Assembly: GCA_965243735.1 (NCBI GenBank)
Contig: CBDEVZ010000008.1
Location: 3,867,180 to 3,931,179, forward strand
From: an uncultured Candidatus Binatia bacterium
GTDB lineage: Bacteria > Desulfobacterota > Binatia > Bin18
DNA length: 64,000 nucleotides
Direction of reading: 5' to 3'
In this document: positions 14,896 through 64,000 of the stretch, piece by piece
Numbering within the stretch: the stretch's first letter is position 1
Layout: each line of letters opens with the position of its first letter
Position numbers and translations under genes: made by a program
Notes under the pieces: model-generated
The model's input: only the letters and a program-made list of their open reading frames with translations
Database searches by the model: none
Told to the model about the DNA's origin: nothing

Positions 14896-15551
14896 TAATA
14901 CCAGCTGCGCTTGATTTCGACAGGTGGTTTATGCGTGGCGGTTTCAAGGGCTGCGCTGGCGCGGCCGTAGGCTGGATGTGAATACACGCCGATGCGCGAA
15001 ACCAGCTTCCAGGGGAAACGATGTTCGACCAGGAATTCTGCCTGTTTGCCCTCCTTTACCGATGAAGAGAGCCCCCGGCCGGACCAGCGATCACTCCGTA
15101 CGGCGTCCCAGTCAATCTCGCCCAGTCGGGACAAGTCGGAGCGATCCTTAAAGTAGCGGGCCCCAGCGTTCGACAACGTGAAGGCCCACCGTTGTTCGTG
15201 TTCCTCCGCCCAAGCAATGGTCTGGAATAAGTCCGCCTCCAGATGAACAATGAGTTCCTGCCCACCGCGATAGGCTAATTCAGGATGATTCGCCATATGG
15301 AGCAGGTAGAGCATGACGGACCGCGGGCAGAAGTAGAACGGCACGCACTGACCCACGTAGAGACCTGAATGACTGGTGAGCGTGAGTTCGGTCAGCCGCC
15401 GCTGCTTGATATTGCTCATACCGATTGCGGTGCCAGATGGTAAGCGTTGAACAACCTCTGCATCGCACCAGAGGAAGCCGTCCGCAATGACCGAGGGCAA
15501 CCGGTCGACGTGGACGATATGGTAAATCTTTGGCTCGGCGGGCATTGGCAT
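14892..15551 (-). CDS. darT: DarT toxin (DUF4433 ssDNA thymidine ADP-ribosyltransferase)
   Basis: KIYHIVHVDRLPSVIADG start and conserved ...QAEFLVE... DarT motif. ATG at 15551 (TTG at 15557 is also possible). Overlaps darG by 4 nt. Confidence 0.8.
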   Translation of the reverse strand: MPMPAEPKIYHIVHVDRLPSVIADGFLWCDAEVVQRLPSGTAIGMSNIKQRRLTELTLTSHSGLYVGQCVPFYFCPRSVMLYLLHMANHPELAYRGGQELIVHLEADLFQTIAWAEEHEQRWAFTLSNAGARYFKDRSDLSRLGEIDWDAVRSDRWSGRGLSSSVKEGKQAEFLVEHRFPWKLVSRIGVYSHPAYGRASAALETATHKPPVEIKRSWYY

Positions 15552-15599
15552 GGTCAATGCTCAACATCCGACGGTTCTTGCCCGTTGTCGGCCTCGGGC

Positions 15600-15629
15600 T
15601 CAGCGGCGTTCGGAGGTGTCGGTGGTCAT
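15600..15629 (-). pseudogene. Duplicated 5' fragment of hsdR (MTTDTSERR-stop)
   Basis: atgaccaccgacacctccgaacgccgctga is near-identical to the first 8 codons of hsdR (13796-13819, MTTDTSERG). Confidence 0.5.
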
Positions 15630-15649
15630 TGTGGGTCTGCTTGGTCTGT

Positions 15650-15743
15650 GAACAGGTTTATGACCCGAAGGCCATCGTAGTCCCGCTCCTCGCTGAACCC
15701 CTCGGAATAGACTACGTCGCAGCCCAGGGTACGTGCTGCTCAC
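15650..15743 (-). pseudogene. vapC remnant with internal deletion (~310 bp missing)
   Basis: Aligns to the 3' end of the intact vapC at 21307-21741 (…gcagcccaggg…), then jumps directly to the GTG start overlapping the vapB stop. The reading frame is destroyed. Confidence 0.55.
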
Positions 15744-16087
15744 CCGCGCTTGAGGTCTTCGTCTTCGGTGGCGGCCGCTGCCCGAGCCTCGGCCCTGGCT
15801 CTGGCCCGGTCGTACAGTTCCTCGCGCGTGAGGTTATCGGATATCCGCAGGCCTACGGCGCGAGCATCGAAATCCTCGAATACCTCGCGCAACATCCCCC
15901 GACAGCGTTCGGCTTCCGTCTCCACGTTCGTCTCGTTGGACGCCGTGCCGCCGGCGCGGTCCGCAACAAGACTCTTCAGGTAGTTCCGCACCAGATCCGA
16001 CACCGAGGTGTCCAACTCCGCCGCCCGAATACGGGCGAGGAGATAGGTTTCTTCGTCAACGGATACAGCGATGTTTTTTATGGCCAT
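15740..16087 (-). CDS. vapB: VapB-like ribbon-helix-helix antitoxin (paralogue 1)
   Basis: MAIKNIAVSVDEETYLLARIRAAELDTSVSDLVRNYLKSL. About 85% identical to the antitoxin at 21738-22079, whose partner is an intact PIN toxin. Confidence 0.6.
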   Translation of the reverse strand: MAIKNIAVSVDEETYLLARIRAAELDTSVSDLVRNYLKSLVADRAGGTASNETNVETEAERCRGMLREVFEDFDARAVGLRISDNLTREELYDRARARAEARAAAATEDEDLKRG

Positions 16088-16176
16088 AGCCTCACAATTT
16101 CTGAGAGACACAGCATAGGTTCCCATTGACCGACGGGCAACACCTCCAACGTCGTACGGGGGCAGCCAGATTCGGT

Positions 16177-16198
16177 AGGGGCGACCGGCCGGTCGCCC
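16177..16198. terminator. Perfect 22-bp palindrome GGGGCGACCGGCCGGTCGCCCC immediately 3' of the hsdS stop
   Basis: Strong GC hairpin abutting the hsdS stop (16199-16201). No U-tract, so it may be an attenuator or processing signal rather than an intrinsic terminator. Confidence 0.35.
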
Positions 16199-17605
16199 CT
16201 ACGCGACGTCAGTGTCGAGAGCGTCGTCCAGGGCGTCGTCGGCAGCCAGAGGATCGACCTCGGGCAGCGCGGCCGCCGCCTCGCGCACGTCGAGCTTGCC
16301 GGTAACGACATCAGCGATCAGGCGGGTGCGGTATTCGTGGAGGCGTGTGACTAGCCCGCGAGCACCGTCCATCGCCGCTGCAACGTTGCGCGTTGATCTC
16401 CTGAGGAAATCAACAATCATTCTCTGCTCGTCTTCAGGCGGGATGGCAACGGCAAGGACTTGCCAGCGTTCTGTGGGAAGGCGGCGAGTACCATGACCAG
16501 CCTCATCTATCAACGGCACGAAAGCGTCTTGCGCCGAATCCAATGCGCGCGCCAGAAATTCTGCCTCGATTCCCAAGACTGGCATCAGGGCCTTCATGTC
16601 TTGATTGATTGTCACGGGGCTCGTGATCCAGGCAATGGGAACCTTCCGAGCCAAGATCATCCCGCGGACGACCATCAGAACCGCTGGCGGATCGATCAGG
16701 CGTAGCGATGTTTCGTGAACAGCAGCCTCTGTGACCTTCATACCTGAGTCACAGATAGTCTCTCGCTTCATGTCTTTCGGCGTGACCCAGGGGATTGATC
16801 CATCCCAAAATCGCCGGTTTTCCATACTCGGCGTCATGCCGCCAACAACCATCCCGCATTGGCGCAGCTTCTTTACCTCCCAATGCGCCGGCACCTCGCC
16901 CAGCCACTCGACGCCGGAGGGCTTGTAGGCTGGGTAGGGCTGGCCGGTGCGCACGTTGATCTGGCCGGTGACGGCTTGGTGGATGATGGCCTGCTTCTGC
17001 TCCTCCAGCAGCGCAATCAGCTTCTGTTTGGCGCGGATGTAGCGCTGGATGCGCCAGTCGGCGTGGTCGAGGAAGCGGACGATGGCGGTTTGTTCGGACT
17101 CGGGCGGCCACCCCAGATAAATACTACCGACTATGTCGGTGTTCAGATTGAGTTGTGTTCCGAGCTTTCCCAATCTTGCGAACGGTGCTCTACACGAAAA
17201 CACACGGTATAAGAACTCGACATTGCCACGAAACTGAGGGAAGTAAACAAATCCATCATGAATGCAACATTGGATATTCGTGATGATCGGCTTTCCCACG
17301 GAACCAGCAATGCTGAGGAACAGCGCTCCTGGTTGTAATCGCACACTCAAAGATTGCCCTAGCCGAGAAAGGCGTTGTGTCGCCTTCTCAAGATAGTGAT
17401 TGCTCGCCGTTACATCGGCAATACGTACCCACGCATATTCGCCACTATCATCAAAATATCTTGTGTCACCAATTGGCCTTGGAGAGGCACCCCGCTTGAC
17501 TAAAGATAAGCTCTTCAGCCGCCGCACCTCCCAATGCGCCGGCACCTTCCCCAGCCACGGCACACCGGAATCTTTGTAAGCAGGATAAGGTTTGAGGCTC
17601 TCCAT
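16199..17605 (-). CDS. hsdS: Type I restriction-modification specificity subunit HsdS
   Basis: 468 aa with two target-recognition domains separated by conserved repeats (VPAHWEVRRLKSL ... VPAHWEVKKLRQ). Confidence 0.85.
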   Translation of the reverse strand: MESLKPYPAYKDSGVPWLGKVPAHWEVRRLKSLSLVKRGASPRPIGDTRYFDDSGEYAWVRIADVTASNHYLEKATQRLSRLGQSLSVRLQPGALFLSIAGSVGKPIITNIQCCIHDGFVYFPQFRGNVEFLYRVFSCRAPFARLGKLGTQLNLNTDIVGSIYLGWPPESEQTAIVRFLDHADWRIQRYIRAKQKLIALLEEQKQAIIHQAVTGQINVRTGQPYPAYKPSGVEWLGEVPAHWEVKKLRQCGMVVGGMTPSMENRRFWDGSIPWVTPKDMKRETICDSGMKVTEAAVHETSLRLIDPPAVLMVVRGMILARKVPIAWITSPVTINQDMKALMPVLGIEAEFLARALDSAQDAFVPLIDEAGHGTRRLPTERWQVLAVAIPPEDEQRMIVDFLRRSTRNVAAAMDGARGLVTRLHEYRTRLIADVVTGKLDVREAAAALPEVDPLAADDALDDALDTDVA

Positions 17606-17607
17606 CA

Positions 17608-17733
17608 GACTGCTTGGATGGGACCGGGATAGCGGACCACTTTGGTGTCGGTGGTCAGCAGGGTGATATTCTCAACCTGCGCTTGGGCGATGAGAATGCG
17701 GTCGAAGGGGTCATTGTGAATCGGCGGGAGCAG
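17608..17733 (-). pseudogene. PIN-domain (VapC, COG3744-type) C-terminal remnant
   Basis: Alternative frame encodes LLPPIHNDPFDRILIAQAQVENITLLTTDTKVVRYPGPIQAV, matching the LHRDPFDRLLIAQAqvEglpLvTaD C-terminus of VapC. No PIN N-terminus is present. Its TGA overlaps the hsdS ATG (TGATG). Confidence 0.55.
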
Positions 17734-18656
17734 GCCGACAGCACTCCCCCGAACATCTTCTCTATCTCGGGACCGCCCATGCTATCGAAGTCGTCGGGGA
17801 CCTGGATGTGTCCGGCCATGAAACCCAGGCGGGACGATGGTGTTCCATCGGGAAGTGCAAAGCCGAACTCACGCCGCAGACGGTCATACGCCTCCCGCGC
17901 CTCGGAACCGCGCCGGGCGGCCGCCTCGTGAAGCTGCTTCAAGTCCGCTCCGCCGTACAGGAGATCGACCGTATCGGCAATGAACTGCTCGATATGGGGA
18001 TCGCTGGCGTCCTGCTGGACAACCCAGCGCCAAAACCGCGCCATGCGTGTATCGTCAGGCTGGCTATAATCTTCCGGTTGTAGACCCGCGACCACCCAGG
18101 GCTTCCCCAAACGGAGGTCGGGATTGACCGAATCCTGGTACGACCACATGCGCAAGCCTGCCATGAGGGCCGCGCAAATGAACGCCCCATTGGACGTAGC
18201 TCGATCACTCCTGGCCGCCTCTCCGTTGTGTCCACGACAGCGGTCCATCTCGCGCAAGTATGACTCGACTTCGTGCTTGAGGGCGTAACTCGAACGTTTC
18301 GGCGGAGCCGGTCCATTGAAGCGACGCGCCCAGCCACACCCCTTCGGGCGATAGCTCAGCGACACCCGGCCCTCCACAAAATACTCCAACGTGTTGCGAA
18401 TACCCCGCTCATCCTGCCCGCCCGCCCGTAACGCATCCCGCGCTGCGTCCAAATCAGCGGGAATACACTCTATCTCCCAACGCTCCAAGTGCGTGCTCTC
18501 GGCAGAAAAAATACGGCGACGACGACGCACTTGTCCCAAGCCATGCGCATTGAGCAGAGGATAGGCTGCCAGAACCCGCTCGCGTTCCGCATCAAAAAAT
18601 CCTGGGTCCGAAAGCAACCGAGCGGCTCTCAACCACAACTGTTGGCTCTTCGTCAT
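17655..18656 (-). CDS. Hypothetical protein embedded between hsdM and hsdS (orfX)
   Basis: 333-aa ORF with no recognisable domain, and own promoter and RBS (AGGGA). The last ~40 codons overlap the PIN remnant in another frame and are probably read-through. Confidence 0.5.
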   Translation of the reverse strand: MTKSQQLWLRAARLLSDPGFFDAERERVLAAYPLLNAHGLGQVRRRRRIFSAESTHLERWEIECIPADLDAARDALRAGGQDERGIRNTLEYFVEGRVSLSYRPKGCGWARRFNGPAPPKRSSYALKHEVESYLREMDRCRGHNGEAARSDRATSNGAFICAALMAGLRMWSYQDSVNPDLRLGKPWVVAGLQPEDYSQPDDTRMARFWRWVVQQDASDPHIEQFIADTVDLLYGGADLKQLHEAAARRGSEAREAYDRLRREFGFALPDGTPSSRLGFMAGHIQVPDDFDSMGGPEIEKMFGGVLSACSRRFTMTPSTAFSSPKRRLRISPC

Positions 18657-36954: not shown

Positions 36955-37848
36955 TCAATTCGTCCCATTCATCCTTGTGTCGATCAATTGCTTCAAGGTA
37001 ACAAAGTCGGCGGGCTGGACACTCGTGTCTTTTTGCAGAAGATCCTTCACGATCTCATTGATTTTTTCGCGGCCTTGTAGAACAGTCCCGTCCATTGCTT
37101 GCACGGAAAAGCAACCGGAATTAATGACCTGGGCAAAGACTTTCTTACCTTGAACCATGCACAGCCATTCGCCCGTGCCAAAGGCGAGAGTGCTCTGACC
37201 ACCTGTCATAAGTTCTACACATTCATGGAACCTGTGTTCCACTTCATCTGCTGAAACCGTTTGGTCAACAGTTGACCGATACTGACCGAATTGGTTCGCG
37301 TTTATCAGCCTTTGAAGGGCTTTTCCTTTTGTGGAAAAGTCCGCAGGATTCGAGAACTTTTCTATCCAGTTCCTCTTCAATTCCTCTCGTATCGATATCA
37401 CGACGTGGTTTGCGGCATCAAGAAATAGTCGCTCGTTGGCGCATTTCAGGACTTTTTCTTCAAGATCGCCCTGGCTGGCCTGACAAAACTGTGAGTGGAG
37501 GAGATAGGCTGGCTCTAAAAAATAGTTTTCGATTTCACGCCGTCTCCAAACAAGGAGGTTGCGCGTCGCGGGATTAGGGAAATTATTCCAGCACCGGTCT
37601 ACGAAGTCATCCTTGTGGTGATCGCGGTCGATCAAGAAATAATATGTCGGGTGGTAGCTGCTTAAGGCCTCTGCAACACTTTCTACGTAGAACGATGGGC
37701 CGAGAGTCTCAATCTGGATCCTATTATCGAACAATTCGTTGAGCGCTTTGGAATCAACCGATTCCTCATCTTTCCCTTCCACAAAGAGCACATGTTGGCC
37801 TTGAAATCGGACTTCTTCGGCACGGATTCCTCTTTTTACGCTGACCAT
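36955..37848 (-). CDS. DUF4435 (OLD-type TOPRIM-like) protein, AriB/AbiLi-like
   Basis: VLFVEGKDEESVD matches the xLxVEGxxD TOPRIM motif of DUF4435. 297 aa. Overlaps and follows the ATPase gene. Region visibly AT-richer than flanks. Confidence 0.6.
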   Translation of the reverse strand: MVSVKRGIRAEEVRFQGQHVLFVEGKDEESVDSKALNELFDNRIQIETLGPSFYVESVAEALSSYHPTYYFLIDRDHHKDDFVDRCWNNFPNPATRNLLVWRRREIENYFLEPAYLLHSQFCQASQGDLEEKVLKCANERLFLDAANHVVISIREELKRNWIEKFSNPADFSTKGKALQRLINANQFGQYRSTVDQTVSADEVEHRFHECVELMTGGQSTLAFGTGEWLCMVQGKKVFAQVINSGCFSVQAMDGTVLQGREKINEIVKDLLQKDTSVQPADFVTLKQLIDTRMNGTN

Positions 37849-37863
37849 TTATCTATCGTCCTC

Positions 37864-38937
37864 CTAATTGTTCAGGAGGAGAACACGCCGGTCTTCATTG
37901 ACCGAATCCATAATATCTTCGGAATGGGTCGCCATGATGTATTGGTTCTGAGGAGCCAAATCCACAAGCTGCTTCATGAAACTACGATGCCATTGAGCAT
38001 TGAGATGCAACTCCGGCTCATCGATAAACACCACAGAGGGATTGTCCTTCGTGTGATCCCAAATCAGGAAAAGCGTGGAGATAATTTCCTTTTGGCCGGA
38101 ACTCAGGCCGTCGAAGGCGAAGGAATCTTTTCCAGTTCTAGGTTTGACGCGGACTTCAACGGTGTTGTCGGGAGACGGCCGAAGCTTGTGGATCTCGCCT
38201 CCCGCATAAAACTTCATAAGATCGTTGAGCTTCTCAAGGGTCTCATCTGGATCCTCTTTCTCGACAAATTCAAACAAGTTGGCCCTACGCATTAAGGAGC
38301 GCAAAATCCTCAGTTTGAATATGCTCATAGGGAACTCATACCCCCTCCGCCGCCATCTCGGCGAGTGATCTCGTTCCACCATCATGCCTAGCTCTGGATT
38401 TCCTTCCTGAACTTTCCGGTAGCTATGGAACAGGAGAAAAGTGTTTTCGACGACCGGGTCCAGCGTAAAGCCACAAATTGCCTTGATGAGATGATCGGGA
38501 TCTCGCTCAGAGTCAAAGCGCTCATTCTCGCGTATCTTCTCGAGTAGCGACCCACCTGCTATTTTGACTAGGCCGTGACGATCTATTCGGATTCGTACCG
38601 GTCCTGACTCGTCGCCGAGAACAATGTCACCTTTAATTTCAGCATAGTGGGAACCCGCCTTGATAAGCAGGTCGGGCACATCCAATTCCGATCGGCCACC
38701 ATACAACTTGAAAAGCTCCTTGAAGCGCTTCACCCCCAAAGAGAGCGCTAGGAGTAGCAACGAACAACACTCGATAACCGATGTCTTTCCAAGGCCATTC
38801 TCGCTGCCCATGACGAGGATATCTGGATCATTAGGCATTCGTGGCGACGGGAAGTCCAACGCAAGCGCGTCGAGGCCTTTGTAATTGCGTATGGCTAGGT
38901 GCCTGATTTTAATTGGCAGGTTTGGGCCTCTCTGCAT
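37864..38937 (-). CDS. AAA_15/AAA_21 ABC-type ATPase, AriA/AbiLii-like
   Basis: GSENGLGKTSVIEC Walker A, ...VVFIDEPELHLN Walker B/D-loop, ATHSEDIM H-loop. 357 aa. Confidence 0.65.
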   Translation of the reverse strand: MQRGPNLPIKIRHLAIRNYKGLDALALDFPSPRMPNDPDILVMGSENGLGKTSVIECCSLLLLALSLGVKRFKELFKLYGGRSELDVPDLLIKAGSHYAEIKGDIVLGDESGPVRIRIDRHGLVKIAGGSLLEKIRENERFDSERDPDHLIKAICGFTLDPVVENTFLLFHSYRKVQEGNPELGMMVERDHSPRWRRRGYEFPMSIFKLRILRSLMRRANLFEFVEKEDPDETLEKLNDLMKFYAGGEIHKLRPSPDNTVEVRVKPRTGKDSFAFDGLSSGQKEIISTLFLIWDHTKDNPSVVFIDEPELHLNAQWHRSFMKQLVDLAPQNQYIMATHSEDIMDSVNEDRRVLLLNN

Positions 38938-49222: not shown

Positions 49223-49300
49223 CCACTGGCGGTCTGGTCGTGCGCCGTGCCCCGTCGCCGTGCGTACAGTCCCCATCCCCTGAACTCACGAGGTGGCAGG

Positions 49301-50350
49301 ATGTCAGTGCCGAATATTTTCAAATACGCAACTAAGGAACTGTCACAGGACGCCGTCATTTGTTGGCTCGTAGCCTGCGCGAAAGACGCAGAGGAGCCAC
49401 ACAGAGAGCGGGGAATGGCGTTCATCCGCAGATTGTGGACCCATTATGATTACGCCACAAATGGGTCAGGGGACAGGCGGTGCACCATCATCGCCATCAA
49501 AGGGCCGCAACCCCAGCACCAGAAAATTGACGTCTATTTTCAAGCCAGAGTGAACGGCAAAACCGTCAGCTTCATCATCGAAGACAAGACGGACGGGAAG
49601 ATAGACAGTGCCCAACTCCGCCGGTACAGGGACCAGATTCCCGGCAACAAGTGTCTGATCTGCTACAAGACCGGCTACGTGTTCGATGACGATCGCCAGG
49701 AGGCGGAGCAGGCGTGTTTCGGCGTCTTCAACGCCGAGGATATGCTCGCCTTTCTCAATGCTGTCTCAGTCCAGGACGACCATGAGATATTGCGCCAATA
49801 CCGTGCCCATCTAACCGATGTAGTTAATGAGAGAACGACAGCTCTGGAGAACTGGGATTTAGCCTACGATTTCGTTCAGTACGAGTTCATGAGCAAGCTC
49901 AGAGATCGGATAGTCGAACATAGGGGCCGCTGGGTAGGTTTCTTGCCCAGTGGGATGCAGTCCGATTGGCCGGACTCCGTAGGCCGAGGGAAGAATCTGG
50001 GCGGCGGGCCTTGGACCCAGTACTGGTTCTGTAGGCACCTATTCTGGCGGCTCGACGATGATCATCGGTTGCGGTTAATGGTATCGACGCAGGAGGCGTC
50101 GGAACTGGGCGGCTGGAACGAGGAGGTCTGGAACCGGTGGTACGAGATGTTCTTGTCGTTGGGGAACGATATTGAAGTACCTGCCGAGGCGCCTCAGAGG
50201 CGTTGGCGTCGGGGTGACAAGTTCGTCAAGGAGGGTGTAGTCGGGGCGATAAACCTTGGTGCGGCTCTGTCCGCGAACGCCGATGGCCTCGAAGCTACAT
50301 TGGAAAAAGTTGTGCGACTCCACTGCGCATTTATTAAGCAGATCGCCTAG
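49301..50350 (+). CDS. Hypothetical protein, possible PD-(D/E)xK nuclease-like
   Basis: 349 aa from MSVPNIFKY (AGGTGG RBS). ...TVSFIIEDKTDGKID resembles a D...E-x-K restriction-endonuclease-like core. AT-richer than flanks. Fold assignment is speculative. Confidence 0.4.
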   Translation: MSVPNIFKYATKELSQDAVICWLVACAKDAEEPHRERGMAFIRRLWTHYDYATNGSGDRRCTIIAIKGPQPQHQKIDVYFQARVNGKTVSFIIEDKTDGKIDSAQLRRYRDQIPGNKCLICYKTGYVFDDDRQEAEQACFGVFNAEDMLAFLNAVSVQDDHEILRQYRAHLTDVVNERTTALENWDLAYDFVQYEFMSKLRDRIVEHRGRWVGFLPSGMQSDWPDSVGRGKNLGGGPWTQYWFCRHLFWRLDDDHRLRLMVSTQEASELGGWNEEVWNRWYEMFLSLGNDIEVPAEAPQRRWRRGDKFVKEGVVGAINLGAALSANADGLEATLEKVVRLHCAFIKQIA

Positions 50351-50507
50351 CGCCGCCGCCTACACCCCGGACTGAACAATCTTCGGCTTGGCGGGCGGTT
50401 GACCCGCGATTCGTTCAGATCGGCCTGAGAACGAACCAAAATAGCCCGAAATGGGGCGTCAGCACTTCTAACAAATCGTCCTTGTTTAAGCTTGGGAAGG
50501 GAGAACG

Positions 50508-51434
50508 ATGAAGGATACGGTAAAATCAATTGTAGCGAGTGTAGCTGGCCACTTGGCTCTTGATCCACACTGTGGCCAGGCAGTCCCGTTCAATATTGTC
50601 GAGCCGTTCGGTCCGAGACAGAACCACCGACACTGTCCAGCCAACCCACCCAAGGCCAGATTCGCGCGAATCCTCACGGCCGACCGGCTGGCTATGATAG
50701 GGTTAGCTGCCAAGACGTGGCTGGCTGGAAATCCGCCCGAGATGGCAGACGTGAGCGCAGTCGTGGACGCCGCAATATCACGCCTCGTTCCCGATGGACC
50801 GGACGGGCTACCCGACCCCTCCCACAGCGACGTACAGGCGTACTTCTGGCTGGGCAACAAGAAGACAAAAGTCCAAGACAAGGTGGGTCAACTCAATTCG
50901 CGCCAGCAGCGGGAACTGACCACGCAACTGACCCAGCTCCTAGACACCGTCCGGGCTGAATGCGTTCCGCAACTAGAGACTCTCCCGCCAACGGCGGCCG
51001 ATGAAGAGTCTTTCGACCCGAACAATGAGGAAGACACGCGACAGCGGACTGAGCGAACGACCACACAACGCGACGGGCAAACAGAGTTTCGAGAGTCTGT
51101 AATTGCCGCATATGCAGGGAAGTGTGCGATTACAGCCTGCTCCATTCGTGCTGTCCTTGAGGCAGCGCATATCATTCCGTATCGCGGTGCTCATACAGAT
51201 AAGATATCTAACGGCCTCCTCCTCCGTGTCGATCTGCATAGATTGTTCGATCGCAAGTTACTGGCAATCGACCCAGAGACGATGGAAGTTCTTCTTGCTC
51301 CTCATCTGGAGGATAGCGAGTACAGAAATTGGTGTGGACGCCGTATTCGGCTACCGAAAAATACAAAGGACCAGCCAAACACAGAAGCTCTAAGAATGCA
51401 CCTTGAGGCTTGTAGGAACGCCTGGGGAGAATAG
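50508..51434 (+). CDS. HNH endonuclease domain protein (HNH_2-like C-terminus) with unknown N-terminal domain
   Basis: C-terminal GKCAITACSIRAVLEAAHIIPYRGAHTDKISNGLLLRVDLHRLFD matches the C-x2-C...H-I-x-P...N-G-L...H-x-x-FD HNH pattern. AAGGGAG RBS. Confidence 0.6.
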   Translation: MKDTVKSIVASVAGHLALDPHCGQAVPFNIVEPFGPRQNHRHCPANPPKARFARILTADRLAMIGLAAKTWLAGNPPEMADVSAVVDAAISRLVPDGPDGLPDPSHSDVQAYFWLGNKKTKVQDKVGQLNSRQQRELTTQLTQLLDTVRAECVPQLETLPPTAADEESFDPNNEEDTRQRTERTTTQRDGQTEFRESVIAAYAGKCAITACSIRAVLEAAHIIPYRGAHTDKISNGLLLRVDLHRLFDRKLLAIDPETMEVLLAPHLEDSEYRNWCGRRIRLPKNTKDQPNTEALRMHLEACRNAWGE

Positions 51435-55881: not shown

Positions 55882-56023
55882 GGCAGCTCATCGTCGAAGA
55901 CCACGCAGAACACCCCCACCGGAATGTTGCAGCGCCTGATGGAAGAATGGTAGGGCGTTGTCAGGATGGCACGGGGTCTACGGTATTTCCGAGGCAGCAA
56001 ACAAAACAGCGGAGAACAAGACC

Positions 56024-57631
56024 ATGCTGCGTGAGTACCGGCTGACCAACTTCAAAGCCTTCGGCGACACCGTCACCATCCCTATTCGTCCGCTCACGCT
56101 GATCTTTGGAGCGAATTCGTCCGGCAAGAGTTCAATTTTCCAATCGCTGCTGCTCCTGAAGCAGACGCTTAAGGAGGCGAAAAATCCCGAAACCGCCCTC
56201 CTCCCCAACGGAAGCTTGGTCGATCTAGGTATGTACAGAGATTTCGTTTACCGGCATGAGACAGAACGCAACTTCGAGGTTGGAGCAAGGTTTACTCTCG
56301 ATAATTCGCCTACTGCATCATGGGAACAGAGAATCTTCAAAAGATTGAATCTGGAGACTGTAGGTCTCAACATTGTGTTCGGATACAAGACAGAGGCATA
56401 CGCTGTTACTCCTAGTCATCTGAACATAGACGCTGGGGAAGAGTCTCGACCCTCTATTTTTTATTCCAAGTTCTTTGGCGGAAGTAACATCCAAGTTGCA
56501 ATTGACCCTGAGACAGAATATTGGCATCATCTGCTATGGGAAACCGCAAGGCGCCAATTGTTTTCAGACCAGAGACAGGACCACGGCAGATTCCATAAAT
56601 TTTTGCCAACCTCTTGGCAACAAAATCCCCATAAAAATACGCTGAAGGAGATTGTAGAAGATCGAATGAAAGGTACGACGTTTACTGTTCCTTGCAACTA
56701 CAAGAACTTTCTTCTATATTTTCCATCAGAGTTTCTGCTGCAACCCGCTCACAGCTCCCACTTTGTTGAATTTAAGGAGTCAATTAGAGGACCCGCCCAA
56801 TCTTTAGCTAAGTCGCTAAAGAAGCGCCTACCATCCACAAGCGCTAGATTGAACGCGGAGCGAGTAACAGAATTATTGAAGATCGTGCTCAATGGAGCCC
56901 TTTCCAATACTCAGCAGATTTGTTCCTCTTTCCATTCCCTTTGGGAGAATTTTATACATTTAGGCCCCCTGCGAGACGAGCCAGAGCGCTATTATTCTTT
57001 CAGCGGAGATACAACCGACTATGTTGGTCAATCAGGCGAATCTCTGCCTTCTATTCTTTTCGAGGATCAGGAACTGATAGAACAAACTAATAGCGACCTA
57101 GAACGGCTCGGTACCAAATACAAAGTTAAATTCGACAAACTACAATACGAGGATGCAAGCCGGAGCAACGTTTTTTCTCTTCGCCTTGTTCATACAGACA
57201 CCGCCATAGACGCTAGCCTACGGGATGTTGGCTTCGGCATCAGCCAAGTGCTGCCCATCGTCGTGCAAAGCCGCCTCTCCGAGAAGAAAACGCTCTTGAT
57301 CGAACAACCGGAAATCCATCTTCATCCCGCTCATCAAGCCGAACTCGGAGACCTGTTTATCAGGTCTGCCAAAGAACGGGGCAATACCCTTCTGCTGGAA
57401 ACGCACAGCGAACACCTGATACTTCGCATCTTGCGCCGAATCCGAGAGACAACTGAGAATGGTCTACCTGAAGACTTCCCTGCTATCCGTCCGGAGGATG
57501 TGGCTGTGCTGTACGTCCAACCCAGCGAGAACGGCGCTCAGGTCGTTGAGATACCTATAACCGAAGACGGTGAATTCGCCTATCCTTGGCCGGGAGGCTT
57601 CTTTGCAGAACGTGTGAAGGAGCTGTTCTAA
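56024..57631 (+). CDS. AAA_15-type ABC ATPase with DUF3696-like C-terminal motif (OLD/SMC-like)
   Basis: FGANSSGKSSIFQSL Walker A, ...LLIEQPEIHLHP Walker B/D-loop, LETHSEHLILRILRRIRE H-loop/DUF3696 signature. 535 aa. AT-richer than flanks. Confidence 0.7.
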   Translation: MLREYRLTNFKAFGDTVTIPIRPLTLIFGANSSGKSSIFQSLLLLKQTLKEAKNPETALLPNGSLVDLGMYRDFVYRHETERNFEVGARFTLDNSPTASWEQRIFKRLNLETVGLNIVFGYKTEAYAVTPSHLNIDAGEESRPSIFYSKFFGGSNIQVAIDPETEYWHHLLWETARRQLFSDQRQDHGRFHKFLPTSWQQNPHKNTLKEIVEDRMKGTTFTVPCNYKNFLLYFPSEFLLQPAHSSHFVEFKESIRGPAQSLAKSLKKRLPSTSARLNAERVTELLKIVLNGALSNTQQICSSFHSLWENFIHLGPLRDEPERYYSFSGDTTDYVGQSGESLPSILFEDQELIEQTNSDLERLGTKYKVKFDKLQYEDASRSNVFSLRLVHTDTAIDASLRDVGFGISQVLPIVVQSRLSEKKTLLIEQPEIHLHPAHQAELGDLFIRSAKERGNTLLLETHSEHLILRILRRIRETTENGLPEDFPAIRPEDVAVLYVQPSENGAQVVEIPITEDGEFAYPWPGGFFAERVKELF

Positions 57632-57635
57632 CGAT

Positions 57636-58584
57636 GATCCACGAATATGCGCTGGAGCCCGAGCTTGTTGCATCATGGCATGACCGAATACGGGGCCGAA
57701 TTTTTATTGATAAGTTCGGCCCCGACACAGGAAGACTTGTTTCACGGTACCCAAACAAGACGAAGTGGGCAGATCTGCTCCGAAAGGCTTTCGAGGAAAC
57801 CTTTGGCGGAACTCCTGGCGAAAAGGAAACGGCACGGGGACGAATAGAAGAACTGAGAAAACAATTCATGTCTCCTCCCGCGGTCAAGCGTTCGGAATGC
57901 GTATGGGACGCTAACCGCGGCTGGCTCGTCAACGCAGAGAGCGAACATACACGCAAGCCCTTTCACGCAATCCTTGCTCGTGATAACCCCCACGCAAATG
58001 TAAAGATAATAGTTGAAAATGATGTCATAGACCGTAAGGCTACACGTTGGGACACCCCGATTACGGTCACCGTCAAACGAGCGGCGGAAGAAATGGCAAA
58101 ATGTGTTACGCCGATGCTACGCTGTGCAACAAAGATACTCTTTGTTGATCCGAACTTTCGGGCAAACAAAAAGGAATTTCGGGAACCGTTAGCAGCGTTT
58201 CTTCGGAGCGTTGACACACAAACTTCGAAGATAACTATCGAACTCCATACAGAAGAACGAGATGACACGCCGAGCTGGACAGAGTTTCGGAAAGAATGTG
58301 AGAACAAACTGCCTCCCATCATTCCCAAAGGCTTAACGCTCACGGTGTATCGTTGGAAGGAACGCGAGGGCGGCGAAAAGCTGCATAATCGTTACATACT
58401 GACGGACATTGGTGGTGTGTCTTTTCTGACCGGGCTCGACGAGGGCGACCCAGGGATGACTGATGACGTTTCGCGTCTCAGCGCCGCCACTTATAACCAG
58501 CGATGGAATGACTACGACGAGCGAAACGGTGTGTTTAAACTCGACCGCGAAACTTTTTCAGTCGAAGGTCAAGCAATTGGTTAA
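57636..58584 (+). CDS. Hypothetical protein, partner of the AAA_15/DUF3696 ATPase
   Basis: 316 aa, starts 5 nt after the ATPase stop, same low GC. No recognisable domain. Weak HNRYILTDIGGV motif. Confidence 0.45.
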
Positions 58585-58594
58585 GTACGAACGC

Positions 58595-59110
58595 TCACAA
58601 CAACCGGAACTGACGCAGCACGGCGGCAACCTTTTCGTCGCCCTGCCCAAGCGAGCGCAGCGCTTCAAATAGAGAGTGCAGGTTCTCCCGGTTACGGGCC
58701 AGCTCGTCTTCGATCCCCTCGACTTTGCTCTGAACTGGCCGCACCATCGTCCGGCGGTCCCATAGCGCAAAGCCAATTGTAGCTGCCACGAGAGCAGCAA
58801 AAGCACCAAGCATCCCCAGCATGAGCTGACCCAGTTCGGCGAATCGGGCGTTCATGTCCTGCCGGAGCTGTTGGAACTGGGTCTGCATATCGGCCCGCAG
58901 CTGCTGATTCTGGGTCTGCATGTCAGTTCGCAGCTGGGTAATGGCTGTGGTATTCGCCTCGATTTTCGTCGCCAGGTGGGTTTGTCCGGCTTCCAGTTTG
59001 GTCAAGCGTTCGATGATCTCCCGGTCGGAGATGCGCGGCGCGGTCTCGACCGCTCCCACAGCGCCAGAGCAGAGCAGCGCCAGGAGCACGGTCAGGACGG
59101 CAGTCTTCAT
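58595..59110 (-). CDS. Hypothetical secreted/membrane coiled-coil protein
   Basis: Signal peptide (MKTAVLTVLLALLCSGAVGA), Q-rich coiled coil (LRTDMQTQNQQLRADMQTQFQQLRQDM), C-terminal TM helix. Confidence 0.4.
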   Translation of the reverse strand: MKTAVLTVLLALLCSGAVGAVETAPRISDREIIERLTKLEAGQTHLATKIEANTTAITQLRTDMQTQNQQLRADMQTQFQQLRQDMNARFAELGQLMLGMLGAFAALVAATIGFALWDRRTMVRPVQSKVEGIEDELARNRENLHSLFEALRSLGQGDEKVAAVLRQFRLL

Positions 59111-59299
59111 ACGCCTTCGCATGACCATCATCAAACGCGACCAAGGCGGCGAAGTCAACCGGCGATCCGGCTCGGGCCGTCATCTGGTGGCGCCGTCTCC
59201 CGGGTCCGCCCACACACCTTGTCGGGCTGGCCCGATTCGGTTAGGGTAGTCCGATCTTTTGGCGTGAGCATATCCCTCAGGGGAAAGGAAGGAGTGACT

Positions 59300-60931: not shown

Positions 60932-63900
60932 TCAGCCTTCGGCCTCTGTCGGCTCGGGCGCTCGGGAGCCGTCTTCGACGACCCGGCAGAAGACATTCAC
61001 CGCCGCCATGTGGTCCAGCGTGGCGCAGTGCGTGCGGGCCAAGCCGGGGTGGGCCACCACAATGGCCAGGCTGCGCGCCCGGGACAGGGCGACATTCAAA
61101 CGGTTACGGTTGAACAGAAAGTCGATGCCGCGTGGCGACGCTTCGCCGTGGCTGGCACACATCGACACGATCACGATGGCCGCTTCCTGGCCCTGAAATT
61201 TATCGACCGAGCCGACCCGAGCCTGATCCCCCAGGGCCGCCTGCAACCGACGCACCTGCATATTATACGGGGCGACGAGCAGGATATCGTCGAGTCCGAC
61301 CGTCCCCGACGACCGGCCCTGCTCGTCGGTCAACTCGCGGCCCAGCAGCTCGTGGACGATCTCCCGGATCAGACCGACTTCTTCAGCGCTGGCCTGAGTA
61401 TTGCCCGCATGCTCAGCCGGCACGAAGACGAGACCCGCCTCGTGGCGGATATGACGCCCGCCGTCCGTCGGCCTGCGGACCAGCCGGTTTTTAGTCGGCG
61501 GCGCGGCCCGCAGGCGGCCGTCATACATGGCCTCGGAGATGAAGTGGCACAGCTGCGGATGGAGACGCCAGGTGGTGTCCAGAAAGAGCCCCAGCGTATC
61601 GGGAATGGTCGCCCGGCCCTGGAGCAGGTAGTCCAGAGTCGACTGGCCGCTGTGGCCGGGATGCGAGCCCTGTATCGGCTGGCCGAGCTGCATCTGGTCG
61701 CCCAACAGGACGAGGTTCCGGCTTGAGGCCGCCATGCCGATCAGATTGGCCGTCGAAACCTGCCCGGCCTCATCAACAAACAGATAGTCGAGCTGCTCCC
61801 GCATGGAGGCGGCGCTGAAGGCCCAGGCCGTGCCGCCGATCAGCCCGACCCGGTCCAGCTCGGACGCGGCGTCTCGAACGGATGGGACGTAGCGCGCCCC
61901 CTGGCAGTGACTGAAAAACGACGCGTCCGCCGGTCCGCCGACCTTGAGACAGTTGAGCTGTCCGTTCTGCTGTTCGGCGCATTTTTGCATCAGGTTCAGA
62001 ATCGCCGCATGACTGTTTGAGCTGATGCCGACGCGTTTCCCCTGGCCCAAGAGAGACACGATCACCGCAGCCGCCAGCGTGGTTTTACCCGTACCGGGCG
62101 GGCCCTGGATGCACAAGGTGGACTGGTCGAGCCCCGACACGAGCCGCAGCGCAGCCGCCCGCAGGTCTTCGTCGGGAGCGACCAAGGCCCGAGAGTCACC
62201 CCGGGGCGCTGAGGACAGGCGGGGGGGACGCCGGGCCAGGAAATCGGCCAGGGCCGGAGACAGCCGGCGATCCTCGTGCCAGCTTCGGGCGGTGTGCTCT
62301 ATGGCTTTGGCGATCACCTCGGCCGAGACGTGTTCGTCCGGAATCAGCGACAGCCTGGCCGGGGGAGGAGCGCCCCCGAGCTGCTTGAGCTTGCGCGGGC
62401 CGAACTTCAGACACACCCGACCGGCGTCCCGGTCCAGTTCATGGATGTCGGTCGTCATGTCGAGATCGTGGGCAAAAAAGCAGCTCGCGCCCTGGGTCAA
62501 CTTAGTGTCCTGGTCGGGATCGAAGGCGTACCAGAAGCCGGCGGATCTTTTGATAGGGATGGGCCGGTCCGACTCGCGGCGCAGTCCACCCAAACAGTCG
62601 AGGTCTTCAACCAGCTCCTGTTCGCTCATCGCCTGGCGGTCGAAGGTCGCCCACCACAGGGGCTTGTCCTCACGGCGGTGGAACTCGACCACGTTGCCCA
62701 GCATCTCCTGGGTTTGCCAGCGCTGAGTGTCCCCGGCCCGCTCTTGCTCCAGCTGGGGAATGTCAGCCAGCAGGCGCTCGGCCAGCTCGTGGCGTGGGTT
62801 GGGTTCGGCCGCACGCTCCGCGCCCTCCTCCTTGGCCGGTCCGGCTCCGGGCGGCAGCCAGGCGATGCCCGCCTCACGCTGCCGCTCCCGCAGCCATTCG
62901 GTGAGCTGCCAGGTCGATTCGCAGTCGTCACGGTTGTAGTCCCGAATCTCCCGCAGCAGCGGCGAGGCGCGCCAGTCCTGGGGCTGACCGCTGGCCAGCC
63001 AGTTTTCGTAGGCCACGACCGAGTCACCCGCCGTGCTGACCGGCCCGGTTCGGCGGGTGTCGCGGTACAGAGACTCGATGTTTTTGAGCGAGTAGCGCGG
63101 CTCGCCGACCCGCAGGCCCTGGCGTACAAGCGTATACAGATCGACAAACACATTGTGTCGCAGCAGCTCATCGACCTCGGTCTCACGGGTTCCGTAGCGG
63201 CCCATCAGGCGGCGCACCGCAGCGACTTCATAGTTGGCGTAATGGTAGATGTGCAGCGCCGGGTCAGCCTGCCAGCGGGCGAACACCCAATCGACAAAGC
63301 CTTCAAAGGCCCGCTTTTCCTGAGCGGCGTCGTGAGCCCACCAGTCGAGAAACTGGGGAGCGCCGTGTTCGAGGTAGGTCACCCCGAACAGGTATTCCAG
63401 CCCGCCCCTGAGCAGCGGATAGCCCTCGATGTCGAAATACACATCGAGCGGAGACTGGGGGGGCAGCAGGGCCAAGCCCTTGCGTGGGTCGTCCGGTGCG
63501 GGTTCCACGATGTGGTAGGCCGGTGTGTCGGTCTGGGCGGACGCAAGCTGGAGCCGGGCCTGATCCCGCAGCCGGACAAACACCGCGTCGTCCAGGCGCG
63601 CCACGTGCTTGCGGTCGGTTTCGGCCAGGCCGCGCAGCGTCTGGATACCTGCGGCGTGCAGCTTCTCGACCTGGGTCTGGATGATGTTGGCCACCCGGCT
63701 CAGATGATCGCTCGATTCGAGCAGCGCTTCGGCGTGCGACTGCCAGCGGCCGTTCTCATCCCACGGGTTGGGCAGCGGAGGACTGTCAGGGTCAAAGCCA
63801 GCCAGGAAGGCGACAAAGGCGTTCTTCAGCGCCCGGTAGTAATACACATAGTCGGCCGTCCGAAACGTGTGCGCCCGGTCGTCGCCCGTCACACAGTGCA

Positions 63901-64000
63901 GCTGCTCGGGACACCGCCCCTGGACCGCTTCGAGCAGGTCGGCATACGCGCACAGCTGGACCACAAACTCGGGTCGCACCATCCGCGCCAGCTTGGTCTC
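60932..64000 (-). CDS. RecB-family (TM0106-type) nuclease fused to SF1 DNA2/NAM7-like helicase; 5' end beyond window
   Basis: Over 1016 aa; PD-(D/E)xK nuclease region (LDVYFDIEGYP...), helicase Walker A GPPGTGKTT, AAA_12 C-terminal motifs. Frame still open at nt 64000. Confidence 0.7.
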   Translation of the reverse strand, partial: ETKLARMVRPEFVVQLCAYADLLEAVQGRCPEQLHCVTGDDRAHTFRTADYVYYYRALKNAFVAFLAGFDPDSPPLPNPWDENGRWQSHAEALLESSDHLSRVANIIQTQVEKLHAAGIQTLRGLAETDRKHVARLDDAVFVRLRDQARLQLASAQTDTPAYHIVEPAPDDPRKGLALLPPQSPLDVYFDIEGYPLLRGGLEYLFGVTYLEHGAPQFLDWWAHDAAQEKRAFEGFVDWVFARWQADPALHIYHYANYEVAAVRRLMGRYGTRETEVDELLRHNVFVDLYTLVRQGLRVGEPRYSLKNIESLYRDTRRTGPVSTAGDSVVAYENWLASGQPQDWRASPLLREIRDYNRDDCESTWQLTEWLRERQREAGIAWLPPGAGPAKEEGAERAAEPNPRHELAERLLADIPQLEQERAGDTQRWQTQEMLGNVVEFHRREDKPLWWATFDRQAMSEQELVEDLDCLGGLRRESDRPIPIKRSAGFWYAFDPDQDTKLTQGASCFFAHDLDMTTDIHELDRDAGRVCLKFGPRKLKQLGGAPPPARLSLIPDEHVSAEVIAKAIEHTARSWHEDRRLSPALADFLARRPPRLSSAPRGDSRALVAPDEDLRAAALRLVSGLDQSTLCIQGPPGTGKTTLAAAVIVSLLGQGKRVGISSNSHAAILNLMQKCAEQQNGQLNCLKVGGPADASFFSHCQGARYVPSVRDAASELDRVGLIGGTAWAFSAASMREQLDYLFVDEAGQVSTANLIGMAASSRNLVLLGDQMQLGQPIQGSHPGHSGQSTLDYLLQGRATIPDTLGLFLDTTWRLHPQLCHFISEAMYDGRLRAAPPTKNRLVRRPTDGGRHIRHEAGLVFVPAEHAGNTQASAEEVGLIREIVHELLGRELTDEQGRSSGTVGLDDILLVAPYNMQVRRLQAALGDQARVGSVDKFQGQEAAIVIVSMCASHGEASPRGIDFLFNRNRLNVALSRARSLAIVVAHPGLARTHCATLDHMAAVNVFCRVVEDGSRAPEPTEAEG

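Follow-up and report, generated by a model that had tools for sequence, protein, structure and literature searches.

What does a pair of closely spaced genes, one for an ABC-type ATPase and one for a protein that carries no recognized name, do in the genome of an uncultured Candidatus Binatia bacterium? Both open reading frames (ORFs) lie on the plus strand of a 64-kb stretch of contig CBDEVZ010000008.1, which we analyzed at its full length and call the window. The first-pass annotation of this DNA proposed an undescribed, horizontally acquired defense system made of an ATPase and an effector. We consider it likely that this two-gene cassette was acquired horizontally and serves as an autonomous anti-phage module on the Menshen/HEC-03 (Hma-embedded candidate 03) chassis without the nsnA gene, in which an NsnB-type ATPase is coupled to an effector of PIN-like and MIT_C/PB-PLD1 type that would act through release and nuclease activity. 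The module would probably work by abortive infection. A defense-type pair of ATPase and effector is upheld by strong matches to defense models, by the joint conservation of the two genes (76 of 76 cases), and by copies in defense islands. The word "undescribed" is not upheld: the chassis is known, and a two-gene system of this kind, HEC-03, has been validated (bioRxiv 10.1101/2024.01.29.577857).

Gene Coordinates and Composition

The ATPase gene (535 amino acids [aa]) runs from an ATG at 56024 to a stop at 57631, as first annotated, and its start is backed by an alignment in which homologues open with MLREYRLTNFKAFG. The partner gene (316 aa) occupies positions 57634 to 58584; its length and end had been called correctly, but the start had been placed at 57636, in a frame that contains 19 stops, and the true ATG is at 57634. 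The gap between the two genes is 2 nucleotides (nt; TAA-CG-ATG), not the 5 nt originally given. The junction (57617-57633), in which an AAGGAG within the end of the ATPase gene is followed by the TAA stop (57629-57631) and the 2-nt spacer before the partner ATG, reads as one of translational coupling.

GC content is 0.483 in the ATPase gene and 0.505 in the partner gene, and GC content at third codon positions (GC3) is 0.513 and 0.502, respectively, against 0.72 to 0.84 in the six genes that neighbor the cassette. The cassette is also the lowest-GC 2.56-kb stretch of the window (0.492 versus a mean of 0.623 and a standard deviation [SD] of 0.036, i.e., 3.6 SD below). The difference in GC3, together with flanking genes that vary across loci, marks the cassette as compositionally foreign and horizontally acquired, just as its AT richness had earlier been taken to indicate.

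The ATPase

Pfam places the ATPase in AAA_15 (1.3e-24) and AAA_21 (4.9e-18), with a DUF3696 match at aa 488-534 (6.5e-6). The PADLOC model that fits it best is NsnB, from Menshen (2.2e-58, covering positions 1-337 of the 345 in the model), followed by PDC-M55A (5.5e-54) and the HEC-03 ATPase (5.4e-51); AriA (1e-27) and AbiLi, GajA, and PtuA (1e-11 or weaker) match far less well. NCBIfam returned nothing above cutoff, all repair equivalogs falling far below, and no nuclease domain is fused to the protein. Judged by these matches, which agree with the OLD/ABC class assigned in the first pass, the protein is an NsnB/HEC-03-type ABC (OLD-ABC, AAA_15) ATPase with a DUF3696 tail.

We aligned the ATPase with eight ATPases adjoining partner homologues and then counted motifs in 61 distinct relatives. 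Among the eight, the N-terminal region with the P-loop and the last third of the protein are conserved, whereas the middle (aa ~120-295; 56381-56908) differs in both length and sequence; if other ABC-ATPase defense systems are a guide, this variable insert is a candidate trigger-sensing surface. The Walker A and D-loop motifs reported earlier are present. Walker A is GANSSGKS (aa 29-36; 56108-56131), and G.N..GKS recurs in 56 of the 61 relatives. An LGPLR motif (aa 313-317; 56960-56974; [LIV]GP.R in 54/61) carries an Arg at what is presumably the position of the Q-loop Gln. The signature-motif equivalent DVGFGISQ (aa 401-408; 57224-57247; D[VI]G.G..Q in 51/61) has GxG in place of SGG, and Walker B with the D-loop, TLLIEQPEIHLHP (aa 423-435; 57290-57328), carries the acidic dyad E-Q, within a consensus of h-h-h-E-Q-P-E-x-H-x-H (EQ in 52 and EE in 5 of 57 related ATPases). 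The H-loop and the helix that follows it read ETHSEHLILRILRRIRE (aa 459-475; 57398-57448), with [ET]THS in 57 of 61 ATPases. This is the motif that the first-pass annotation had quoted as typical of DUF3696; it lies within or adjoining the AAA_15 match, and the DUF3696 match starts further downstream, at aa 488. The DUF3696 tail itself (aa 488-535; 57485-57628) contains the conserved WPGGFFAERVKELF, written as WP.GFF.ER..ELF across the family (WP.GFF in 54/61), and is predicted to clamp the N-terminal domain of the partner.

The traits described for NsnB are GxG, an Arg replacing the Q-loop Gln, and a noncanonical E-N Walker B (PMC12065111); the ATPase of the window has the GxG and, at the presumed Q-loop position, the Arg, and its Walker B dyad is E-Q, not E-N. 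The natural E-Q dyad equals the change that experimenters make when they want to hold an ABC ATPase with its ATP bound: the catalytic glutamate of classical ABC ATPases is the second residue of Walker B, and its mutation to Q traps the ATP-bound dimer. By analogy, the natural dyad suggests a slow-hydrolyzing, ATP-binding switch and not a motor.

The Partner: Family, Fold, and Motifs

The partner belongs to a large family. A database clustered at 90% holds 599 homologues, and among the 120 of these that were listed none has a Pfam domain and the few with a name are called "hypothetical protein." An exhaustive profile search with the family recovered 2,840 clusters at 50% identity (E ≤ 1e-3), 1,080 of them at E ≤ 1e-30; among the best 150 of the 2,840, most are matched over nearly their full length and are proteins of 300 to 330 aa. 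Relatives are absent from 2.9 million viral contigs. Matches of the partner to a DddA-like model (0.09) and to a type I S subunit (0.035) were at chance level and were rejected.

An AlphaFold2 model built from 54 sequences (predicted local distance difference test, 83.2; predicted template modeling score, 0.75) suggests a PIN-like N-terminal domain (aa 1-140; 57634-58053) fused to a C-terminal domain of the phospholipase D (PLD) superfamily (aa ~141-300; 58054-58533), an architecture like that of NsnC. The predicted C-domain has the PLD alpha/beta fold, of MIT_C-like kind. Its structural relatives (figure of similarity in parentheses) are FAM83A (9.9), the SauUSI nuclease domain (9.7), MITD1 (9.6), TrmB (9.6), NucT (9.3), vaccinia F13 (9.2), Nuc (8.7), Zucchini (8.4), BfiI (7.7), and NgoAVII (7.6), and MITD1 has the highest identity (17 to 19%). 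Foldseek independently agrees, all 17 of its matches at E ≤ 1e-3 being PLD or TrmBL2 proteins.

Invariant and near-invariant positions of the partner gather in four places. The extreme N terminus, M-I-H-E-Y-A-L-E-P-x-L-V-x-x-W (MIHEYALEPELVASW in the window), is conserved, as is a helix W-L-x-N-A-E-x-E-H followed by F-H-A-I-L. Among the acidic residues of the N-domain, E4, E8, and E102 are invariant and E104 is nearly so; a canonical VapC-like D-E-D-D tetrad is not evident from the conserved sequence positions. Conserved in the C-terminal half are [IV]-D-P-x-F, E-x-H, and L-H-N-R-Y-I-L-T-D-x-G-G-x-x-F-x-x-G-L-D-E-G. The first of these falls in ILFVDPNFRA (58135-58164), a beta strand that leads into D172-P173-x-F175 ([VI][DE]PxF in 78 of 80 partners), and the last corresponds to LHNRYILTDIGGVSFLTGLDEGD (58381-58449), where H251-x-R253-x4-D258 and G267-L-D269-E form a predicted active-site or ligand-binding motif. 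H-x-R is present in all 80 partners and is the sole invariant pair in the divergent C-domain alignment (A3); D172, E203/H205, and GLD(E) are also conserved in the family. One family member of 452 aa (P0174) carries an insertion of ~130 to 140 aa in its C-terminal domain, between the GLD loop and a conserved "TDD..LL" segment, which indicates that the GLD loop tolerates large insertions.

These motifs agree with one published class of effector domain. PB-PLD1, one of 15 NsnC effector families, is MIT_C-like and occurs also at BrxL C termini; its hallmarks are a D/E conserved behind beta-2 and, ahead of beta-5, an "HDR" motif (PMC12065111). In our model of the partner, D172 follows the strand at 167-171 and H251-x-R253 precedes the strand at 253-257, matching the PB-PLD1/MIT_C description, with the middle residue of H-x-R mostly N and not D. 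Weak matches among 54 relatives of the partner run the same way (PADLOC BrxL in 11/54, best 1.1e-4; NsnC in 3/54; Pfam MIT_C in 2/54); BrxL and NsnC were the only PADLOC models to match these relatives, and in the one BrxL match inspected, partner residues 113-270 correspond to BrxL model positions 510-662 of 698. We also compared A3 with the MIT_C sequence of human MITD1, checked to be identical to PDB 2ymb_A residues 101-257. In the resulting collinear alignment, VDPyF falls opposite EDPYI, LHNRYIL opposite IHDREIR, and GLDEG opposite GLDYF. BLASTP of the partner C-domain against MITD1 gave no alignment. A methylthioribose kinase that appeared in the profile search of PDB sequences shares a "DPyF" string and was rejected as a chance match.

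Conservation of the Pair and Absence of NsnA

Gene order was examined in 93 loci of related pairs. An ATPase homologue lies directly upstream, on the same strand, in 76 of the 76 partner genes that have at least 600 nt of upstream sequence, and the gap between the genes is -7 to +8 nt in 74 of these pairs, most commonly 2 to 3 nt. Seven diverse homologues with Pfam-annotated contexts give the same picture, an AAA_15/AAA_21(/DUF3696) ATPase gene always standing immediately upstream. The pair is obligate, recurs well beyond chance, and is probably translationally coupled; its conservation as a unit across genomes, which the first-pass proposal entailed, is borne out.

The component that Menshen requires by definition, the sensor gene nsnA (ParB-DUF262), is missing. 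No ORF of at least 120 aa with the DG.QR signature was found in the 64-kb window, where the gene upstream of the cassette encodes an XDH-family molybdenum cofactor subunit and not NsnA. None of the 55 related ATPase genes that have 1.5 kb or more of additional sequence on their upstream side has a DUF262 ORF in that place, and PF03235 was not seen upstream in the seven Pfam-annotated contexts.

Genuine DUF262 (DGQQR) proteins do occur occasionally, only downstream of the pair (locus L001, 10145-12796; L033, 11889-12909; L045, 6476-8320; L046, 7204-9048). In L045 and L046 the protein is encoded ~300 nt downstream; the protein in L001, beyond a PhyH gene, combines GmrSD_N with Schlafen AlbA_2. 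Any of these downstream DUF262 proteins could be NsnA-like in a rearranged order or part of a separate GmrSD-type system; they look like separate island cargo.

Three loci carry two tandem pairs of ATPase and partner genes (L003, 3491-8951; L004, 2-4106; L008, 2309-8981). In the second pair both genes are distant paralogues, with partners 29% and 19% identical, mainly over residues ~95-314, and divergent at the N termini; no PADLOC model matches either partner paralogue, and PDC-M55A is the best PADLOC model for the divergent ATPase paralogues in L003 and L008. Menshen genomes with multiple copies have been noted (PMC12065111), and the tandem pairs in L003/L004 and L008 resemble them.

Copies of the pair are associated with defense islands. 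In L005 to L007, related pairs lie between hsdRMS and genes for a TIR protein, Mrr, and an integrase; elsewhere they stand beside YoeB/Phd and GIY-YIG (L003), beside an insertion sequence (IS) element and PDDEXK_4 (L008), or beside BrnT and ParE modules (L013, Rokubacteria). The pair is solitary among housekeeping genes in L002, L009, L011, and the window, although the window as a whole carries other defense genes, a further point in favor of a defense role.

Proposed Mechanism and Alternatives

How the pair would work, from its complex and trigger to the catalytic activity and its substrate, is proposed here in the light of published Menshen models and of the solved Septu and PARIS complexes (as summarized in PMC12065111). 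In AlphaFold3 (AF3) models of NsnB4-NsnC2, the DUF3696 tails clamp NsnC (PMC12065111). By homology, the ATPase of the cassette would oligomerize through the canonical ABC head-to-head dimer interface, and its paired DUF3696 tails would clamp the PIN-like N-domain of the partner, so that effector monomers are kept separate and inactive. Extreme conservation marks both the tail (WP.GFF.ER..ELF) and the first 15 residues of the partner, as would suit a co-conserved interface. With NsnA absent, the ATPase itself would perceive an infection cue, likely at the variable insert, and this cue might be a phage protein, phage nucleic acid, or a change in the nucleotide pool. A change in the nucleotide state of the slow-hydrolyzing E-Q switch would then release or reorient the effector. 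Single-domain PLD enzymes such as Nuc, BfiI, and Zucchini build their active site across a homodimer, so partner monomers held on the ATPase would be inactive. Once freed, the single PLD-type domains could dimerize as in those enzymes, joining two H-x-R motifs, and cleave nucleic acid, which would stop phage replication at the cost of the cell.

Several points weigh against this reading. Pfam, PADLOC (E ≤ 1), and NCBIfam gave no model match to the window's partner beyond chance level, and it is because sequence libraries give nothing for this protein that the first pass found it unrecognizable. That judgment stands for profile hidden Markov model (HMM) searches with the window's partner; it yields at the level of fold (AlphaFold2 and Foldseek) and motif, where the PIN-like and PLD domains, and with them a known effector family, can be recognized. 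HMM profiles of the full-length partner (A1) and of the C-domain (A3) reached no PLD protein among PDB sequences, and hhalign of A3 with MITD1, used as a single-sequence template, gave 25% probability (pairwise E, 7.7e-4; 99 columns), so that the PLD/MIT_C assignment draws mainly on predicted-structure comparison and motif collinearity and not on sequence statistics. H251-N-R253-x4-D258 has the spacing of HxK(x)4D, with G-L-D-E eight residues on, but the full canonical pattern HxK(x)4D(x)6GSxN fails (K is R in 80/80 partners, and GSxN is missing), and the C-domain does not read as a canonical HKD domain. Nuclease activity is not assured either, since the closest solved relative, MITD1, is a membrane-binding ESCRT-III partner for which we know of no catalysis. 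The PIN-like domain, keeping E4, E8, E102, and E104, may be more than a passive anchor. The clamp-and-release steps are borrowed from the Menshen AF3 models, the partner family is known here from sequence and predicted structure, and the immediate neighbors of the pair are of housekeeping type in the window, L002, and L009.

Some of these points would suit another way of killing on the same chassis, which we consider rather unlikely: the MIT_C-type PLD domain could bind or hydrolyze membrane phospholipids, or the PIN-like N-domain could be an RNase effector with the PLD domain regulating or targeting it. MITD1 binds membranes, and classical PLDs cleave lipids. The alignment of three conserved motifs with MITD1, the absence of the HKD lysine and of GSxN, and the retention of invariant E4, E8, and E102 with near-invariant E104 in the N-domain are all in keeping with this alternative, as is the description of the HEC-03 PIN partner as VapC-like (bioRxiv 10.1101/2024.01.29.577857). 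However, the invariant H-x-R (80/80), together with D172, E203/H205, and GLD(E), argues for a catalytic or ligand site and not a mere lipid surface, and the nearest prokaryotic structural relatives (SauUSI, NucT, Nuc, BfiI, and NgoAVII) are nucleases. PB-PLD1 has likewise been classed as a probable nuclease (PMC12065111), and the full D-E-D-D tetrad that a PIN RNase would have is not evident from the conserved sequence positions. A toxin-antitoxin (TA)-like addiction module, in which the ATPase restrains a toxic partner and the primary role is maintenance of an element or conflict between mobile genetic elements, seems improbable to us. It would account for the foreign composition of the cassette, for the TA modules, integrase, and IS elements near the pair in L003, L005, L008, and L013, for the annotation of Pfam AAA_21 as "putative AbiEii toxin, type IV TA," and for the toxicity of HEC-03 when induced (bioRxiv 10.1101/2024.01.29.577857). 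Yet no tRNA, integrase, or flanking direct repeat lies beside the cassette in the window, several other loci likewise have no recognizable mobile element, and the characterized members of the ATPase clade, Menshen and HEC-03, are phage defense systems; the TA-like and abortive-infection readings are, moreover, compatible with each other.

The distribution of the pair bears on two further explanations. If the cassette were a decayed, nonfunctional three-gene Menshen operon that had lost nsnA, one would understand why NsnB is the best model for the ATPase and why the partner shows NsnC architecture, and sporadic loss of domains or genes is on record for Menshen (PMC12065111). But nsnA is in position at 0 of 55 loci while the coupled pair is intact in 76 of 76, full-length partners make up ~2,840 sequence clusters with strongly conserved motifs, and tandem duplicated pairs occur. 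This distribution, with the conserved motifs and the tandem pairs, points to a functional, independently evolving two-gene family and not to repeated decay, an explanation that the distribution data largely refute and to which we give very little credence. We think it equally far-fetched that the pair is a housekeeping SMC/RecF-like DNA repair ATPase with an accessory phosphodiesterase: the composition of the cassette is strongly foreign, its occurrence is patchy and its contexts are nonsyntenic, the NCBIfam repair equivalogs all lie far below cutoff, and the best matches are to defense-system models. An anti-phage module with an NsnB-type ATPase and a PIN-like/PLD effector is the reading that we prefer. 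Its boldest form, in which the pair is a fully autonomous sensor-effector, the NsnB-type ATPase detects infection, NsnA is an accessory add-on, and the PLD domain of MIT_C type, with its H-x-R, works as a true enzyme activated by release and dimerization, is possible but doubtful.

Several consequences follow from the preferred reading and from the data behind it. A partner family of ~2,840 clusters at 50% identity is invisible to annotation, PADLOC 2.0 has no model for it, and defense tools that demand nsnA for a Menshen call would miss such pairs. Because the pairs escape annotation, counts of defense systems in Binatia, Rokubacteria, and other lineages of soil and sediment come out too low. 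An NsnB-NsnC module that exists, is conserved, and is even duplicated without NsnA bears on the Menshen model of NsnA as the sensor that activates NsnB and suggests that the ATPase can be the primary sensor. Since the MIT_C-type PLD clade also includes domains of BrxL and human MITD1, a two-gene system would offer a convenient test of catalysis, and if the reading of the pair as an autonomous sensor with a real enzyme were true, it would give a first tractable handle on the biochemistry of a domain common to BrxL (BREX) and human MITD1. No new principle is involved; the pair extends the theme of an ABC ATPase that regulates a swappable effector.

Neighboring Genes and Other Features of the Window

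A Shine-Dalgarno-like GGAG (56011-56014, plus strand), presumably functional, lies 9 nt 5' of the ATPase ATG. Promoter and terminator scans around the cassette gave nothing above shuffle expectation. A 23-nt imperfect inverted repeat that brackets the cassette (56022-56044 and 58601-58623; 19/23 complementary) was rejected as a mobility signature and is probably due to chance: when the region is shuffled, about 1 shuffle in 10 yields a comparable repeat, both arms lie inside coding sequence, and the repeat does not recur around the pair in L001, L002, or L009.

On the minus strand, convergent with the partner gene, a 187-aa ORF (58595-59158) of intermediate GC3 (0.72) has no Pfam or PADLOC match; it has a signal- or transmembrane-like N terminus, coiled-coil repeats rich in Q (QLRxDMQTQ), and another hydrophobic segment, and in the other loci it does not accompany the pair. 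A sigma-54-dependent activator gene recurs beside the pair, upstream and divergent in L001, L002, L011, and L012 and downstream in L003 and L004. For the first four loci we rejected it as a functional link, given the synteny shared among related genomes (BNR/sortilin, activator, pair, followed in L001, L011, and L012 by a PhyH gene); in L003 and L004 its position has no such explanation.

The window is rich in defense cargo in low-GC patches. On the minus strand at 10820-18656, a type I restriction-modification (RM) R subunit (10820-13819; PADLOC REase_I, 1.2e-44) and S subunit (16199-17605) enclose a Macro-domain DarG-like gene (13816-14895) and DarT (14892-15557; Pfam DarT, 4e-63), and a 333-aa ORF without a match (17655-18656) follows the S subunit region. 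By its gene content this arrangement appears to be DarTG inside a type I RM operon, one defense system embedded in another ("guilt-by-embedding"). A second pair of ATPase and partner genes lies at 36955-38937 (minus strand) in a patch of ~0.52 GC. Its 357-aa AAA_15/AAA_21 ATPase matches PADLOC AriAB (4.7e-21), PtuA (4e-20), and AriA (1.6e-17), and its 297-aa ORF, with no Pfam match, matches AriAB (3e-9) and AriB (6.8e-5), so the pair looks like a PARIS-like system. In another patch (0.52 to 0.58 GC) at 49247-51434 on the plus strand, a 367-aa ORF without a Pfam or PADLOC match precedes a 308-aa HNH_2 endonuclease (PADLOC HNH, 1.7e-19; 50.5 to 51.4 kb), and the two may form a further small defense or restriction module. 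Finally, a 1016-aa protein encoded at 60932-63982 (minus strand) joins a nuclease domain of the RNase_H_2 superfamily to an AAA_11/AAA_12 superfamily 1 helicase; the C-terminal helicase part matches Mokosh MkoA (3.3e-46), and its GC is host-like (GC3, 0.81).

Comparison with Known Defense Systems

Among known systems, the cassette is closest in several respects to Menshen, the three-gene NsnA-NsnB-NsnC system (Millman 2022, as cited in and dissected by Li et al., NAR 2025 [PMC12065111]). Both have an NsnB-type ATPase with an AAA_15 ABC core, a DUF3696 tail, a GxG signature, an Arg in what is for ours the presumed Q-loop position, and a noncanonical Walker B; in both, the order is ATPase and then effector, with tight coupling. 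The predicted partner, like NsnC, pairs a PIN-like (inPIN) N-domain with a C-terminal effector, here of PB-PLD1/MIT_C type. Unlike Menshen, the cassette has no gene for the NsnA sensor (ParB-DUF262 plus ParBDB), either in the window or in any of the 55 related loci; its Walker B is E-Q where that of Menshen is E-N, and its partners have mostly H-N-R where Menshen has H-D-R. The N-domain, hypervariable in Menshen, is strongly conserved in the partner family, and the PADLOC NsnC model has no match to the window's partner. Because the Menshen survey took NsnA as its seed, pairs such as this one fell outside it, and NsnA-less pairs are nowhere discussed in that paper (PMC12065111).

In gene number the cassette resembles HEC-03, a two-gene system of an ABC ATPase and a VapC-like PIN protein that protects E. 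coli from phages, needs both genes to do so, and is toxic when induced (Payne et al., bioRxiv 10.1101/2024.01.29.577857). Each has an ABC ATPase and a PIN-fold partner, predicted in ours, and no DUF262 sensor, and the match of our ATPase to the HEC-03 ATPase model is strong (5.4e-51). The HEC-03 partner is described as a VapC-like PIN protein only, whereas the partner here would add a C-terminal PLD-type domain; the PADLOC model of the HEC-03 partner matches neither the window's partner nor its 54 relatives nor the tandem paralogues, and the window copy, unlike HEC-03, is not embedded in an Hma system. The ATPase also matches PDC-M55A (5.5e-54), from an untested PADLOC candidate system, but the PDC-M55B model has no match to the partner family, and we found no published account of the nature of PDC-M55B.

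More distant likenesses concern the general layout and the effector fold. In PARIS (AriA/AriB), Septu (PtuA/PtuB), and Gabija (GajA/GajB), a single effector is bound asymmetrically by a dimer of the ATPase, and sensing leads to its release or activation (summarized in PMC12065111); by analogy, our pair may share with them the control of a nuclease effector by an OLD-type ABC ATPase. Their effectors are Toprim/DUF4435, HNH, and fused Toprim proteins, whereas the partner here is PIN-like plus PLD by prediction and has no such Pfam or PADLOC matches, and the AriA, PtuA, and GajA models match the ATPase 30 to 45 orders of magnitude more weakly than NsnB does. Three features of the partner recur in the MIT_C domain of human MITD1 (a strand ending in D-P-[YF], H-x-R, and a loop with G-L-D), and a family member matches the C-terminal region of the BrxL model. 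The partner differs from the single-HKD nucleases (Nuc, NucT, BfiI, Zucchini, and SauUSI) in having R for K and no GSxN, and the window's partner matches no PLD Pfam HMM. In a literature search whose coverage stopped short of Krishnan et al. 2020 and the Menshen supplementary tables, we found no paper on an NsnA-less NsnB-type ATPase with a PIN-like/PLD protein, and none on any two-gene anti-phage system that joins an ABC ATPase to a PLD protein. The NsnA-less combination and the partner family are new in the sense that they lie outside the PADLOC 2.0 partner models and the searchable literature. The chassis of NsnB-type ATPase and PIN-fold partner is already known, and the most probable identity of the cassette is that of a Menshen/HEC-03-type system in a sensor-less version.

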